Part shown: positions 40,343-45,658 of the stretch, in pieces
Position numbering within the stretch: position 1 is the first letter of the stretch
Layout: every line of letters begins with the position of its first letter
Assembly: GCF_003334355.1 (NCBI RefSeq)
Contig: NZ_QOWP01000012.1
Length of the DNA: 64,000 nt
Reading direction: 5' to 3' (one strand)
DNA from: Escherichia coli
GTDB lineage: Bacteria > Pseudomonadota > Gammaproteobacteria > Enterobacterales > Enterobacteriaceae
The notes under the pieces: generated by a model
The model's input: only the letters and a program-made list of their open reading frames with translations
The model's database searches: none
Told to the model about the DNA's origin: nothing
Position numbers and translations under genes: made by a program

Positions 40343-41449
40343 ATGTTTCATCGCTTATGGACGTTAATCCGCAAAGAGTTGCAGTCGTTGCTGCGCGAAC
40401 CGCAAACCCGCGCGATTCTGATTTTACCCGTGCTAATTCAGGTGATCCTGTTCCCGTTCGCCGCCACGCTGGAAGTGACTAACGCCACCATCGCCATCTA
40501 CGATGAAGATAACGGCGAGCATTCGGTGGAGCTGACCCAACGTTTTGCCCGCGCCAGCGCCTTTACTCATGTGCTGCTGCTGAAAAGCCCACAGGAGATC
40601 CGCCCAACCATCGACACACAAAAGGCGTTACTACTGGTGCGTTTCCCGGCTGACTTCTCGCGCAAACTGGATACCTTCCAGACCGCGCCTTTGCAGTTGA
40701 TCCTCGACGGGCGTAACTCCAACAGTGCGCAAATTGCCGCCAACTACCTGCAACAGATCGTCAAAAATTATCAGCAGGAGCTGCTGGAAGGAAAACCGAA
40801 ACCTAACAACAGCGAGCTGGTGGTACGCAACTGGTATAACCCGAATCTCGACTACAAATGGTTTGTGGTGCCGTCACTGATCGCCATGATCACCACTATC
40901 GGCGTAATGATCGTCACTTCACTTTCCGTCGCCCGCGAACGTGAACAAGGTACGCTCGATCAGCTACTGGTTTCGCCGCTCACCACCTGGCAGATCTTCA
41001 TCGGCAAAGCCGTACCGGCGTTAATTGTCGCCACCTTCCAGGCCACCATTGTGCTGGCGATTGGTATCTGGGCGTATCAAATCCCCTTCGCCGGATCGCT
41101 GGCGCTGTTCTACTTTACGATGGTGATTTATGGTTTATCGCTGGTGGGATTCGGTCTGTTGATTTCATCACTCTGTTCAACACAACAGCAGGCGTTTATC
41201 GGCGTGTTTGTCTTTATGATGCCCGCCATTCTCCTTTCCGGTTACGTTTCTCCGGTGGAAAACATGCCGGTATGGCTGCAAAACCTGACGTGGATTAACC
41301 CTATTCGCCACTTTACGGACATTACCAAGCAGATTTATTTGAAGGATGCGAGTCTGGATATTGTGTGGAATAGTTTGTGGCCGCTACTGGTGATAACGGC
41401 CACGACAGGGTCAGCGGCGTACGCGATGTTTAGACGTAAGGTGATGTAA
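40343..41449 (+). CDS. ybhR: ABC-2 type transporter permease
   Basis: 368 aa hydrophobic ORF, paralogous to ybhS. Confidence 0.85.
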
Positions 41450-41821
41450 CTTCTTATCTTTCGCCAGCAAAGACACTACCGCCGGGCCGGCAAGGATTGC
41501 CAGCCCTGCAATTGCCAGCAAAAAGTTGTTTTCCAGAACGCGGGACAACAGCCACAGCACAATCAGCGCTGCGCCAAAATACCAGGTCGTGGTCAGCTCT
41601 TCCAGCACGTCTGCCACCTCACGCCAGCGTTGCTCGGGGTGGCGCTGAAACACCAGCATCATCACTACCGTGACACAATACAGTGCGCATAATCCCACGC
41701 CGACGTGAACCAGAGTCTTACTCATCCAGCCCACCACCAGCAGCGCCACTACCAGTAAATGCAACATAATCTGCCAGCAACTTAGACCCGTTGCGACACG
41801 AACACGTTGTTGCCACTTCAT
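41411..41821 (-). CDS. ybhQ: Inner membrane protein YbhQ
   Basis: 136 aa hydrophobic ORF; its 3' end overlaps the ybhR 3' end by 39 bp (convergent). Confidence 0.8.
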
Positions 41822-41953
41822 GGCTTCTCTCCTGAAGAATTTATCTCTACTTACTCAGAGTACCGAACTTTACGGAAAATTCCGTAAGACCGCACCTTTT
41901 TGTGACGCCGACTACACTATTTCAATGAGATAAGAGGCAAAGACAGGAAAATT

Positions 41954-42715
41954 ATGCCCGATCAAACACAACAATTTTCGTTCAAGGTGCTCACCATCAA
42001 TATTCACAAAGGCTTTACCGCGTTTAACCGACGCTTCATTTTGCCGGAACTTCGCGACGCCGTGCGTACCGTCAGCGCCGATATTGTTTGCCTGCAGGAA
42101 GTGATGGGCGCGCACGAAGTTCATCCGCTGCATGTGGAAAACTGGCCCGATACCTCGCACTACGAGTTTCTCGCCGACACTATGTGGAGCGATTTTGCCT
42201 ACGGTCGCAATGCCGTATACCCGGAAGGGCATCACGGCAACGCCGTACTGTCGCGTTATCCCATTGAACATTATGAGAATCGCGATGTTTCGGTCGATGG
42301 TGCGGAAAAGCGCGGCGTGCTCTACTGCCGCATTGTGCCGCCGATGACCGGAAAAGCGATTCATGTGATGTGCGTACATCTGGGCCTGCGTGAGGCGCAC
42401 CGTCAGGCGCAGCTTGCGATGCTCGCCGAATGGGTGAATGAGCTACCGGACGGCGAACCGGTATTGGTGGCGGGTGATTTCAATGACTGGCGGCAAAAAG
42501 CTAATCATCCGTTAAAAGTGCAGGCCGGACTGGATGAGATATTTACCCGCGCCCACGGACGCCCGGCGCGCACGTTTCCGGTGCAATTTCCTCTACTACG
42601 TCTGGACAGGATCTACGTCAAAAATGCCAGCGCCAGCGCGCCAACCGCGTTGCCGCTGCAGACATGGCGACACCTTTCTGATCATGCCCCTTTAAGTGCG
42701 GAGATTCATTTATGA
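41954..42715 (+). CDS. ybhP: Endonuclease/exonuclease/phosphatase (EEP) family protein
   Basis: 253 aa ORF recognised as YbhP; stop overlaps the clsB start. Confidence 0.85.
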
Positions 42716-43953
42716 AATGTAGCTGGCGTGAAGGCAATAAGATCGAGTTGCTGGAAAACGGCGAGCAATATTATCCCGCGGTGTTTAAGGCGATTGGCGA
42801 GGCACAAGAACGCATCATTCTTGAAACGTTTATCTGGTTTGAGGATGACGTCGGCAAACAGCTGCATGCGGCACTACTGGCAGCAGCGCAACGCGGGGTT
42901 AAAGCGGAAGTCTTGCTGGATGGCTACGGTTCGCCGGATCTCAGCGATGAGTTTGTCAATGAACTGACGGCAGCTGGCGTGGTATTTCGCTACTACGATC
43001 CCCGCCCTCGCCTTTTTGGTATGCGCACCAATGTGTTTCGCCGGATGCATCGCAAAATTGTGGTGATCGACGCGCGTATCGCCTTTATTGGCGGGCTGAA
43101 TTACTCCGCCGAGCATATGTCCAGCTACGGTCCAGAGGCTAAACAGGATTACGCGGTACGCCTTGAAGGGCCGATTGTCGAAGATATTCTCCAGTTTGAG
43201 CTGGAAAACCTGCCTGGACAGAGCGCGGCACGACGCTGGTGGCGACGTCATCACAAAGCGGAAGAAAATCGCCAGCCGGGAGAAGCGCAGGTATTGCTGG
43301 TCTGGCGCGATAACGAAGAACACCGCGATGATATAGAACGCCACTATCTGAAAATGCTCACTCAGGCGCGGCGGGAAGTCATTATCGCCAACGCCTACTT
43401 CTTCCCCGGCTATCGATTTTTACACGCCTTGCGTAAAGCGGCACGCCGCGGGGTGCGGATCAAACTGATCATTCAGGGCGAACCGGATATGCCGATTGTC
43501 AGAGTCGGCGCGCGCTTGCTGTATAACTATCTGGTTAAAGGCGGCGTTCAGGTGTTTGAGTACCGCCGCCGCCCGCTCCACGGCAAAGTAGCATTGATGG
43601 ACGATCACTGGGCGACAGTAGGGTCCAGTAATCTCGATCCGCTCAGTTTGTCACTGAATCTCGAAGCAAATGTCATCATCCACGATCGTAATTTTAACCA
43701 GACGCTGCGCGATAATCTGAACGGCATTATCGCCGCAGATTGTCAGCAGGTGGATGAAACCATGCTGCCCAAACGCACCTGGTGGAACCTGACCAAAAGC
43801 GTGCTGGCGTTCCACTTTTTACGCCACTTCCCGGCGCTGGTTGGCTGGCTTCCGGCACACACGCCACGTCTGGCGCAGGTTGATCCGCCCGCACAACCGA
43901 CAATGGAAACGCAGGATCGGGTAGAAACTGAAAACACGGGGGTAAAACCCTGA
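42712..43953 (+). CDS. clsB: Cardiolipin synthase B (phospholipase D superfamily)
   Basis: 413 aa ORF with two HKD-type motifs ([17 protein letters not shown]). Confidence 0.9.
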
Positions 43954-44909
43954 TGAGTAAATCACACCCGCGCTGGCGCTTAGCAAAGAAGATCCTCACC
44001 TGGCTGTTTTTTATCGCGGTGATTGTGTTGCTGGTGGTCTACGCCAAAAAAGTGGACTGGGAAGAGGTCTGGAAGGTCATCCGCGACTACAATCGCGTTG
44101 CGCTGCTTAGTGCGGTCGGGCTGGTGGTCGTCAGCTATCTGATTTACGGCTGCTATGACCTGCTCGCCCGCTTTTACTGCGGTCACAAACTGGCGAAGCG
44201 CCAGGTGATGCTGGTGTCGTTTATCTGCTACGCCTTCAACCTGACGCTCAGTACCTGGGTCGGCGGCATTGGTATGCGCTATCGTTTGTACTCTCGTCTG
44301 GGGTTGCCCGGTAGCACTATTACGCGGATTTTCTCGCTCAGTATTACCACCAACTGGCTGGGCTACATTTTACTGGCAGGGATTATCTTTACCGCAGGCG
44401 TGGTGGAGTTGCCGGATCACTGGTATGTCGATCAAACTACGCTGCGTATTCTCGGCATTGGCTTACTGATGATTATCGCGGTTTATTTGTGGTTTTGCGC
44501 TTTCGCGAAGCACCGCCATATGACCATCAAAGGGCAAAAGCTGGTGCTGCCTTCATGGAAATTCGCCCTCGCTCAGATGCTGATTTCCAGCGTTAACTGG
44601 ATGGTAATGGGGGCGATTATCTGGCTGTTACTTGGTCAAAGCGTGAACTATTTCTTTGTACTGGGCGTGTTACTGGTTAGTAGTATTGCTGGCGTCATCG
44701 TGCATATTCCGGCGGGGATCGGTGTGCTGGAAGCGGTGTTTATCGCACTACTGGCTGGGGAGCATACCTCCAAAGGTACAATTATCGCCGCCCTACTCGC
44801 TTACCGTGTGCTGTATTACTTTATCCCACTGCTGCTGGCGCTGATCTGTTACCTGTTGCTGGAAAGCCAGGCGAAGAAGCTACGGGCGAAAAATGAAGCG
44901 GCGATGTGA
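43953..44909 (+). CDS. ybhN: Inner membrane protein YbhN
   Basis: 318 aa polytopic membrane ORF; start overlaps the clsB stop. Confidence 0.85.
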   Translation: MSKSHPRWRLAKKILTWLFFIAVIVLLVVYAKKVDWEEVWKVIRDYNRVALLSAVGLVVVSYLIYGCYDLLARFYCGHKLAKRQVMLVSFICYAFNLTLSTWVGGIGMRYRLYSRLGLPGSTITRIFSLSITTNWLGYILLAGIIFTAGVVELPDHWYVDQTTLRILGIGLLMIIAVYLWFCAFAKHRHMTIKGQKLVLPSWKFALAQMLISSVNWMVMGAIIWLLLGQSVNYFFVLGVLLVSSIAGVIVHIPAGIGVLEAVFIALLAGEHTSKGTIIAALLAYRVLYYFIPLLLALICYLLLESQAKKLRAKNEAAM

Positions 44910-44944
44910 AGTTTAGTTAAGTTCTTTAGTATGTGCATTTACGG

Positions 44945-45658
44945 CTAATGAAAAAAACGCGTATGCCTTTGCCAGACAAGCGTTATAGCTATCGCGGCAA
45001 GTATCCCAAAGAAGCCGATAAAATAGTAATAGAGTGTTAATGCACCTGTAAAAGCGCAACGAACCGGACTCCACAACTCTTCACTATGGCATTTCCCCGC
45101 CAATTCAAGGAGCTTATTTCGTCCATGCGAGATAATGCCTGACCATAACACAATCATTAAGCAACTTATTACCCAAATGGGCCGTTCACTCATTAATGCC
45201 GCATTCACGATGATTACCAGGGCCAACCCTGTCAACGTCATCATAATGATAAAACGGTGAGAACCAGGATCAACATTAAATAATAAACCGGCCAGCATAC
45301 TGATTAAAAACATCGCGCCCGCAGTGCTGAACACGATGATAATGGCATATACAGGAACTAAACTTGCAACGACAATCGCCACCAAAGAGAGTAAAAACAG
45401 ATATATTACGCCCGCGATGGCGGCATTTATCTTGTTGATATCCTTACTTAAGCCATACATACAAAGTAATAATAACCCTATGGCGACATACATTGGTGGT
45501 GAATCATATTTGGTTGCCGTAATTTCGAGATACTTAGCTCCCCAGGCTAGTCCTGCGGTTGCCACCAAACCTAAAGCGGTAATGAGCCATATACCGTTTA
45601 ATATCCTGGCCTCGTGCTGAAAATCTAATTTATTGCTGTTTTGCGAGTATGATTCCAT
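44945..45658 (-). CDS. ybhM: BAX inhibitor-1 family membrane protein
   Basis: 237 aa 7-TM-type ORF recognised as YbhM. Confidence 0.8.
   Translation of the reverse strand: MESYSQNSNKLDFQHEARILNGIWLITALGLVATAGLAWGAKYLEITATKYDSPPMYVAIGLLLLCMYGLSKDINKINAAIAGVIYLFLLSLVAIVVASLVPVYAIIIVFSTAGAMFLISMLAGLLFNVDPGSHRFIIMMTLTGLALVIIVNAALMSERPIWVISCLMIVLWSGIISHGRNKLLELAGKCHSEELWSPVRCAFTGALTLYYYFIGFFGILAAIAITLVWQRHTRFFH

Follow-up and report, generated by a model that had tools for sequence, protein, structure and literature searches.

The conserved ybhR–ybhQ tail-to-tail overlap of Escherichia coli: dual coding that probably follows from loss of an intergenic spacer

Introduction

Why do ybhR and ybhQ, two Escherichia coli genes on opposite strands, run into each other at their 3' ends so that the same 39 nt are read as the end of both genes, and does this arrangement couple the expression of one gene to that of the other? 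Convergent overlaps make up about 7% of prokaryotic gene overlaps and are the sole orientation with seemingly genuine long overlaps (PMC2478687; PMC4161906). In E. coli, 75 of the 663 overlapping pairs are convergent (Huvet & Stumpf 2014, PMC4161906; PMC2478687). Conserved convergent overlapping pairs are a recognized class, according to Rogozin et al. (2002) as cited in PMC2478687. A preliminary description of this locus, made from its sequence alone, pointed out the overlap, reasoned that the two mRNAs must be partly antisense to each other, and proposed that expression of the exporter encoded in part by ybhR could thereby be coupled to that of the small membrane protein encoded by ybhQ. Here, we examine how the overlap is defined, how widely it is conserved, what selection acts on it, how it may have arisen, and where the two transcripts end.

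Results

Two stop codons define the overlap

The window, by which we mean the whole 64,000-nt stretch of DNA that was analyzed, contains the following features at this locus.

40343–41449, plus strand: ybhR coding sequence, an ABC-2 type exporter permease of 368 aa, with stop codon TAA at 41447–41449 (ORF list and RefSeq)
41411–41821, minus strand: ybhQ coding sequence, a YbhQ family inner-membrane protein (PF11076) of 136 aa, with stop codon TGA running from 41413 to 41411 (ORF list, RefSeq and Pfam on homologues)
41411–41449, both strands: tail-to-tail, dual-coding overlap of 39 nt, or 13 codons including one stop codon per gene

The overlapping codons are in register, with position 1 of each codon facing position 3 of its partner and position 2 facing position 2. 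The plus strand reads TCA GCG GCG TAC GCG ATG TTT AGA CGT AAG GTG ATG TAA (12 residues of YbhR and its stop) and the minus strand reads TTA CAT CAC CTT ACG TCT AAA CAT CGC GTA CGC CGC TGA (12 residues of YbhQ and its stop). The ybhR stop falls within ybhQ codon 125, and the ybhQ stop lies opposite ybhR codon 357. Because these two stop codons set the overlap, uncertainty about either start codon is unable to remove it. The 39-bp convergent overlap claimed in the preliminary description is thus confirmed by the ORF list, the sequence and RefSeq, as well as by identity to K-12 MG1655. [quoted passage not shown] In the MG1655 RefSeq record, the same overlap lies between ybhQ (b0791, 824630..825040, plus strand) and ybhR (b0792, 825002..826108, minus strand), and every base of 41200–41900 is identical to MG1655 (window position = 866451 − MG1655 coordinate).

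The locus was found in 5424 of 5426 complete E. coli genomes. Its gene order is cecR-ybhG-ybhF-ybhS-ybhR on the plus strand, ybhQ on the minus strand and ybhP-clsB-ybhN on the plus strand, with ybhR as the final gene of an operon headed by cecR, which is annotated as the transcriptional regulator CecR. Both ORFs show the codon-position pattern of purifying selection; for ybhQ, change at codon positions 1, 2 and 3 amounts to 2.63, 0.94 and 8.24 steps, respectively, as expected of a genuine protein-coding gene.

The overlap is conserved in most Enterobacteriaceae

The preliminary description had suggested looking for the overlap in other Enterobacteriaceae. A scan with a YbhQ alignment against one genome per species (GTDB) returned 80 loci, all from this family, and the overlap measures exactly 39 nt in 63 of these 80 species representatives. 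The genera concerned include Escherichia, Salmonella, Citrobacter, Enterobacter, Leclercia, Kluyvera and Yokenella, as well as Atlantibacter, Siccibacter, Superficieibacter and part of Kosakonia. In one further species, Kosakonia cowanii, the overlap is 48 nt. Thirteen species lack it and have gaps of 2 to 206 nt between the genes, and the last three loci are disrupted, two by a frameshift near the 3' end of ybhR and one by a premature ybhQ stop. The two genes adjoin each other in all 80 loci.

The two protein tails differ in how they are conserved. The C-terminal tail of YbhR, TGS[AV]AYAMFRR[KN][VI][MA] followed by the stop, is of constant length and is kept in 80/80 species. The YbhQ tails of overlap species resemble a single 16-letter sequence, whereas those of non-overlap species are unrelated to it and end in PKAFGLHQGGNAANPxKHR (145 aa) or PSKSFKV (132 aa).

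Half of the overlap is constrained by both proteins

Selection was measured as parsimony steps per site on a distance tree, for 58 non-redundant overlap species and 13 non-overlap species. Among the overlap species, third positions of ybhR change 10.2 times per site over the whole gene. At codons 357–363 the corresponding counts are 0, 0, 2, 8, 3, 0 and 2, a sum of 15 steps against a mean of 71 and the lowest value among 362 seven-codon windows of the gene, and at codons 364–368 they are 9, 14, 11, 15 and 7, which is about the gene-wide rate. Among the non-overlap species, codons 357–363 are average, with 16 steps vs a mean of 17.9. The resulting overlap/non-overlap ratio of 0.23 is the lowest in the gene.

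The YbhQ side of the overlap shows a matching division. Residues 131–136 (K H R V/I R R/H) and the stop are nearly invariant, and residues 125–130 are variable, with first-position change as high as at synonymous sites. The commonest change in the overlap, TAC/TAT in YbhR, is a conservative V/I exchange in YbhQ, and Ala-to-Val changes in YbhR co-vary with Arg-to-His changes in YbhQ, matching the antisense code. The ybhQ stop was never lost in the 58 overlap species; in two of them it was kept through a double change from TGA to TAG at the cost of a Ser-to-Leu replacement in YbhR. Taken together, the third-position and YbhQ residue patterns divide the overlap into two parts.

41411–41431, both strands: doubly constrained half (21 nt), ybhR codons 357–363 (S A A Y A M F) facing the ybhQ stop and then YbhQ residues 136–131 (R R V R H K)
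41432–41449, both strands: singly constrained half (18 nt), constrained mainly by YbhR, ybhR codons 364–368 and stop (R R K V M stop) opposite YbhQ residues 130–125 (S T L H H L)

These patterns bear on the suspicion that the overlap is an annotation artefact or the product of passive read-through, in which one of the C-terminal tails would be functionally irrelevant and the overlap would merely reflect where the next stop falls. The near-synonymous rate of evolution of YbhQ residues 125–130 might be read in this way, as might the wholly different YbhQ tails of non-overlap species, which indicate that the family can do without this precise tail sequence. However, it is stops and not starts that delimit the overlap, the ybhQ stop persists even where YbhR pays for it, the length of the YbhR tail is invariant in all species, and the ybhR synonymous sites opposite YbhQ residues 131–136 are the most constrained of the gene only where the overlap exists. 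The artefact reading is thus already largely refuted, and we regard it as very improbable. Since 63 of 80 species keep exactly 39 nt and the synonymous constraint is specific to overlap species, the overlap is more than chance.

Loss of a tail and spacer may have created the overlap, possibly more than once

In alignments of sister lineages, overlap and non-overlap alleles differ by one block, which consists of ybhQ's own tail, its stop codon and the spacer. Past the motif SLL[ATV]K[DE][KR]x, the ybhQ frame of overlap alleles directly enters the reverse complement of the ybhR stop, with 4, 5 or 6 residues between SLLxK and the overlap depending on the overlap lineage. The 39-nt length itself is a property of the frame, bounded by the ybhR stop and by the first stop met in that frame, opposite Ser357, and is independent of where a deletion ended.

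More distant relatives of YbhQ are few. Just 68 clusters, many of which are fragments, came out of a profile search of 1.84 billion representative proteins, and the distant members that are full-length each carry their own short basic tail. In one of these (L083), ybhQ is followed by a classic hairpin-plus-T terminator; in another (L085), by what appears by eye to be the start of a tRNA-Ser gene; in a third (L084), ybhQ is flanked by ybhL and rhlE, and no ybhGFSR operon lies in the vicinity. The presence of such tails and downstream elements, without an adjacent ybhR, argues that the non-overlapping state is ancestral. In addition, the non-overlap YbhQ tails are homologous across Raoultella, Kosakonia and the L067 lineage. 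The overlap would then have arisen through loss of ybhQ's own tail and spacer, a direction that rests on the outgroups and on the homology among non-overlap tails.

Four clades supported by 97–100% bootstrap mix both states, namely Kosakonia, Atlantibacter plus L067, Phytobacter and Pluralibacter (neighbor-joining tree of concatenated YbhR, YbhS, YbhP and ClsB, 1361 columns). The overlap may therefore have arisen more than once, by repeated deletions into the same antisense frame, and short-patch recombination is a possible alternative to independent deletions. In nearest-neighbor distances of the flanks, which bear on these two routes, the upstream flank is native in Kosakonia and Atlantibacter, Phytobacter and Pluralibacter are ambiguous, and the downstream flank is too conserved to discriminate.

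Each transcript ends inside the partner gene

Published transcript ends from MG1655, together with a stem-loop in the sequence, place the 3' end of each mRNA within the opposite gene.

41377–41403, minus strand: stem-loop in the ybhQ-sense RNA, 11 bp with a 5-nt loop, within ybhR codons 345–354 and starting 7 nt past the ybhQ stop
41371, minus strand: ybhQ mRNA 3' end from Term-seq, inside ybhR, lying 40 nt downstream of the ybhQ stop and 6 nt beyond the stem
41269, minus strand: peak of a Rho region for ybhQ read-through, antisense to ybhR (MG1655 825182 on the plus strand, Rho score 3.9, significance 5e-7); the position is approximate, being the best one within an 800-nt interval
41522, plus strand: peak of a Rho region for the ybhR operon transcript, antisense to ybhQ and 73 nt past the ybhR stop (MG1655 824929 on the minus strand, Rho score 3.85, significance 2e-7)

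The ybhQ 3' end is listed at MG1655 825080 on the plus strand in two growth-condition tabs of Supplementary file 1 of Adams et al. (2021, PMC7815308), in the class "primary ybhQ / antisense ybhR". The Rho regions were derived from DirectRNA-seq with and without bicyclomycin (Supplementary file 2 of the same study). Features of Rho terminators are thus present on both strands, with published bicyclomycin-sensitive read-through and RNA that is C-rich and G-poor; the C/G ratio of the untranslated RNA is 1.43 from 41410 to 41269 on the minus strand and 1.56 from 41450 to 41522 on the plus strand, a modest enrichment. A scan with the intrinsic terminator consensus found none able to serve ybhR or ybhQ. 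Its sole nearby match, from 41493 to 41479 on the minus strand, lies inside the ybhQ ORF and has a poor T-run, and it was rejected. A search of 41000–42100 against Rfam gave no match even at E ≤ 1. From the transcript ends at 41371 and 41522, it follows that the two mRNAs are complementary over roughly 150 nt.

The stem-loop has a predicted ΔG of −19.2 kcal/mol (z = −4.1), with 0 of 200 shuffled sequences equally stable, and no U-tract follows it. In 58 distinct sequences, 92% of the stem cells pair, and double changes are seen at two pairs. One-sided changes in the stem give U.G pairs on the ybhQ strand, where the ybhR strand would have A.C. In overlap species, four-fold sites of the stem core hardly change: Ala353 has 0 steps and Pro347 has 1, where invariant four-fold codons average 12.4. 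Among the 13 non-overlap species, 4 steps occur at Ala353. Hairpins weaker than −12 kcal/mol occur in 0 of 58 overlap vs 3 of 13 non-overlap species, a difference that is suggestive only, and a rank test finds no significant difference in stem stability between these groups (Mann-Whitney p = 0.11). The stem-loop also persists for the most part in several species that lack the overlap (Raoultella and L067). Because it persists without the overlap and the stability comparison is not significant, part of its conservation may instead reflect coding constraint on YbhR. The stem-loop probably determines the 3' end of the ybhQ mRNA. No corresponding conserved RNA element for the ybhR 3' end was found inside ybhQ, where third positions of codons 81–121 change at a normal rate.

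The two mRNAs pair, with no support so far for coupled expression

In libraries of RNase III double-stranded RNA captured with p19 (Huang et al. 2020), the counts are 293/205/281/342 RPM for ybhQ, 322/230/304/354 RPM for ybhR and 27/30/16/20 RPM for ybhS. The signal over ybhQ and ybhR is thus about 10-fold above that over the neighboring ybhS, and near-equal counts for genes of very different length suggest that the reads fall on the shared region. No p19 dsRNA cluster at the ybhR/ybhQ coordinates was found in the other tables of Huang et al. (2020). These published data suggest that the ybhQ and ybhR mRNAs form duplexes that are probably processed by RNase III. Along with the gene geometry, the Term-seq end and the Rho regions, they bear out the part of the preliminary description that took the two mRNAs to be partly antisense.

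The remaining part, coupled expression, has no support so far. It corresponds to a functional convergent excludon, in which envelope stress would raise sigma-E-driven ybhQ transcription, and this, on entering the 3' end of the operon, would lower full-length ybhR mRNA, and hence the YbhFSR exporter, by collision of RNA polymerases and/or RNase III cleavage of the ~150-nt duplex; strong CecR-controlled transcription of ybhGFSR would act in reverse on ybhQ. Several observations are in line with such a switch. ExcludonFinder (2025, PMC12288877) includes the pair in its 165 convergent excludons that recur in at least 50% of 58 MG1655 transcriptomes, the dsRNA signal is as expected of shared-region reads, and antisense reads on ybhR exceed sense reads in total RNA-seq (sense/antisense RPM of 14.2/24.0 for ybhR, 111/5 for ybhQ and 16.2/1.2 for ybhS; Huang 2020). 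The arrangement is maintained in most genera, and the two genes have independent regulators, with cecR heading the ybhR operon and a sigma-E-type promoter upstream of ybhQ.

41855–41883, minus strand: sigma-E-type ybhQ promoter, GGAATTT-N17-TCTGA, a conserved block in an alignment of 20 genera

Consistent with this promoter, ybhQ is induced 5-fold in the published sigma-E regulon, and a published Salmonella sigma-E ChIP-seq peak lies between ybhP and ybhQ.

However, sense reads on ybhR (14.2 RPM) match those on the upstream ybhS (16.2 RPM), and ybhR tracks ybhS in both RNase III mutants (11.6 vs 10.0 in rnc-14 and 6.2 vs 6.8 in rnc-38; Huang 2020), with no ybhR-specific change without RNase III in these whole-gene read counts from unstressed cultures. 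Moreover, about 13 species do well without the overlap, and the excludon listing follows automatically from overlapping coding sequences and needs only that both genes be expressed, which makes it no evidence of regulation. In the literature mentioning ybhQ, we found no expression or perturbation experiment on the pair. Pairing would thus have little effect on steady-state mRNA at the measured levels, at which ybhQ is much more abundant than ybhR, and a regulatory effect under sigma-E stress is possible. On balance, we consider a functional excludon rather unlikely.

The same data speak to a different explanation, namely that YbhQ is an accessory subunit of the YbhFSR exporter and that the interlocking of the genes keeps the two co-inherited. 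Adjacency in every one of the 80 loci is compatible with a partnership of this kind, as is the fact that both are inner-membrane proteins with basic C-terminal tails. Yet synteny within one family is weak evidence, the L084 gene stands apart from any ybhGFSR operon, the two genes have different promoters and regulators, their expression differs about 20-fold per kb, and the literature mentioning ybhQ yielded no interaction data. We therefore find such a partnership improbable.

Discussion

Our results support a model in which the ybhR–ybhQ overlap is a genuine and evolutionarily maintained dual-coding region that is probably a structural consequence of spacer loss, and not a dedicated regulatory device. 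Ancestral ybhQ would have had a short basic tail of its own, a stop codon and a terminator-bearing spacer. Deletion of the tail and spacer would have joined ybhQ, in frame past SLLAKDKK, to the antisense strand of the 3' end of ybhR. Read in that frame, the conserved codons of the YbhR tail would specify 12 residues and a stop, so that the antisense frame would have supplied both a basic tail and a stop codon (TGA opposite the Ser357 codon TCA). The new basic tail of YbhQ is probably cytoplasmic; for both proteins, the location of the tail is predicted from the positive-inside rule.

Since the spacer is gone, neither transcript can end before it has entered the partner gene. Rho presumably acts on both transcripts once ribosomes leave, and would end the ybhR operon transcript about 70 nt into ybhQ antisense. 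The ybhQ mRNA, most likely, is first terminated by Rho at a more distal site and then trimmed as far as the stem. A more ambitious proposal, that the 39-nt overlap was created independently several times by deletions joining ybhQ to one particular antisense frame of the ybhR tail, and has been kept because sigma-E-induced ybhQ transcription throttles YbhFSR during envelope stress, would turn the pair into a selected regulatory excludon that evolved repeatedly within coding sequence; it seems to us doubtful indeed.

As it stands, the pair matters little: some 75 convergent overlaps are annotated in E. coli, and 165 convergent excludons are catalogued. It does serve as a worked example in three respects: a convergent overlap can come from spacer loss; an antisense frame can provide a ready-made basic tail and stop codon; and 75 nt (ybhR codons 345–368 and stop, 41375–41449) can hold three layers of information, namely the tails of YbhR and of YbhQ and the stem-loop at the 3' end of the ybhQ mRNA. 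If it were true that the sigma-E-driven ybhQ transcript modulates YbhFSR, envelope stress would be linked to efflux, but nothing yet points there.

How does this locus compare with known systems? As in convergent excludons (PMC7154746; PMC12288877), neighboring genes on opposite strands give overlapping transcripts, here in published MG1655 data for identical sequence, and probably duplexes processed by RNase III. Unlike excludons that overlap in their UTRs only, ybhR and ybhQ overlap in coding sequence. Mutually exclusive expression, a defining expectation of excludons, is so far only a possibility for this pair, and the rnc mutants show no specific effect.

Dar and Sorek are said to have proposed in 2018 a model in which Rho-dependent 3' ends are trimmed back to a protective stem-loop. 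The ybhQ end resembles such a case, as it lies 6 nt past a stable, GC-rich stem with no U-tract, has a bicyclomycin-sensitive region about 100 nt downstream and is followed by RNA with more C than G. It differs from that model in that the stem-loop is formed by codons of the convergent gene, within its coding sequence, and exonuclease trimming of the ybhQ transcript is presumed.

Bidirectional intrinsic terminators have been described between convergent genes (Ju et al. 2019, as cited in PMC7815308). The stem at 41377–41403 shares with them a single palindrome near both gene ends that is foldable on both strands. This explanation is ruled out, however, as no A-tract/U-tract pair flanks the stem, and G.U pairs of the ybhQ strand correspond to A.C mismatches on the ybhR strand. 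In addition, the stem lies upstream of the ybhR stop, so productive termination of ybhR by it is impossible.

The closest match is the class of conserved convergent overlaps, in which real genes on opposite strands have stop codons inside each other's ORFs, owe this to movement or loss of a stop, are conserved and show purifying selection in the overlap. The ybhR–ybhQ pair has every one of these features. At 39 nt, its overlap is well above the commonest overlaps of a few nucleotides, and still below the 60-nt threshold for "long" overlaps. Unlike overlaps that arise by point mutation of a stop codon, it appears to have come from deletion of a tail plus spacer, perhaps more than once. The overlap was already annotated and catalogued, and it is an ordinary case of a known kind. 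Only mildly new are the constraint specific to overlap species, the apparent (and possibly repeated) loss of tail and spacer from which the overlap arose, and the placement within ybhR codons of a stem-loop for the ybhQ 3' end.

Conserved sequence at and upstream of the 5' end of ybhQ

Two intervals in and beside ybhQ stand out for their constraint:

41750..41821, minus strand: ybhQ codons 1-24, synonymous change suppressed
41855..41890, minus strand: near-invariant palindrome overlapping a sigma-E-type promoter, between ybhQ and ybhP

Within ybhQ codons 1-24 we counted 28 synonymous steps per 10 codons versus approximately 96 expected, a strong suppression seen alike in species with the 39-nt ybhR/ybhQ overlap and in those without it. 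A prior Term-seq study in MG1655 (Adams 2021, PMC7815308) mapped a 3' end internal to the ORF, 60 nt in, at 41761, with an intrinsic-terminator score of 4.9 and a Rho score of 0.6. Consensus folding revealed conserved hairpins in this 5' region, with no covariation in them. This segment may act as a premature terminator, or its RNA may form a conserved structure at the 5' end.

The almost invariant palindrome 5' of ybhQ, TTACGGAATTTTCCGTAA, overlaps a sigma-E-type promoter (GGAATTT-N17-TCTGA). Both the inclusion of ybhQ in the published sigma-E regulon and a sigma-E ChIP peak in Salmonella agree with such a promoter at this position. The palindrome exceeds what a promoter requires and might also be bound by a regulator of the divergent gene ybhP.

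Variants at the ybhQ–ybhR junction

Variants among the 80 Enterobacteriaceae loci compared include the following, each numbered within its own locus:

L052:2501-2920: 48-nt ybhR/ybhQ overlap variant, Kosakonia cowanii
L064:2900-3160 and L066:2900-3190: ybhQ-ybhR spacer of 183-206 nt, Raoultella

In K. cowanii, residue 357 of YbhR is Thr instead of Ser, a substitution that abolishes the ybhQ stop and thus lengthens YbhQ by three codons (…VRRGAR*); the stem-loop that lies just past the ybhQ stop is absent from this locus (dG -2.6). The Raoultella spacers hold a degenerate second copy of the ybhQ tail and spacer (...AAAGCGTT[TC]GG[CA][TC]TGCATCAAGGCGGC...), a tandem duplication of ~130 nt.

Locus L067, whose record is titled Citrobacter freundii strain M-21, clusters at this locus with Atlantibacter rather than Citrobacter (bootstrap 100%), and it has the long non-overlapping YbhQ tail, with just 2 nt between the two genes. 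The genome behind this record has probably been mislabelled or misclassified. Single genomes also carry disrupted genes. In Escherichia albertii NBRC 107761 (L005:529-576), ybhQ is interrupted by an early TAG after codon 15 beside an intact ybhR; either this copy is a pseudogene or the sequence contains an error. Apparent frameshifts interrupt ybhR in Kluyvera genomosp. 3 (L034), Lelliottia nimipressuralis (L079), Leclercia NCTC13032 (L020) and C. amalonaticus AUH (L045), through either errors in assembly or gene decay. Those of L034 and L079 fall around codon 345, close to the 3' end of the gene, and the ybhR ORF therefore stops short of the overlap.

Comparison with a neighboring convergent pair

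A second convergent pair lies nearby:

43953..45658: ybhN (plus strand) and ybhM (minus strand), convergent, gap of ~35 nt

In MG1655, p19-captured dsRNA over ybhN reached 434-1255 RPM, far above ybhQ or ybhR (Huang 2020), and a Rho termination region was mapped antisense to ybhN (MG1655 821989, plus strand; Adams 2021, PMC7815308). Transcript overlap looks stronger at ybhN/ybhM than at ybhQ/ybhR.
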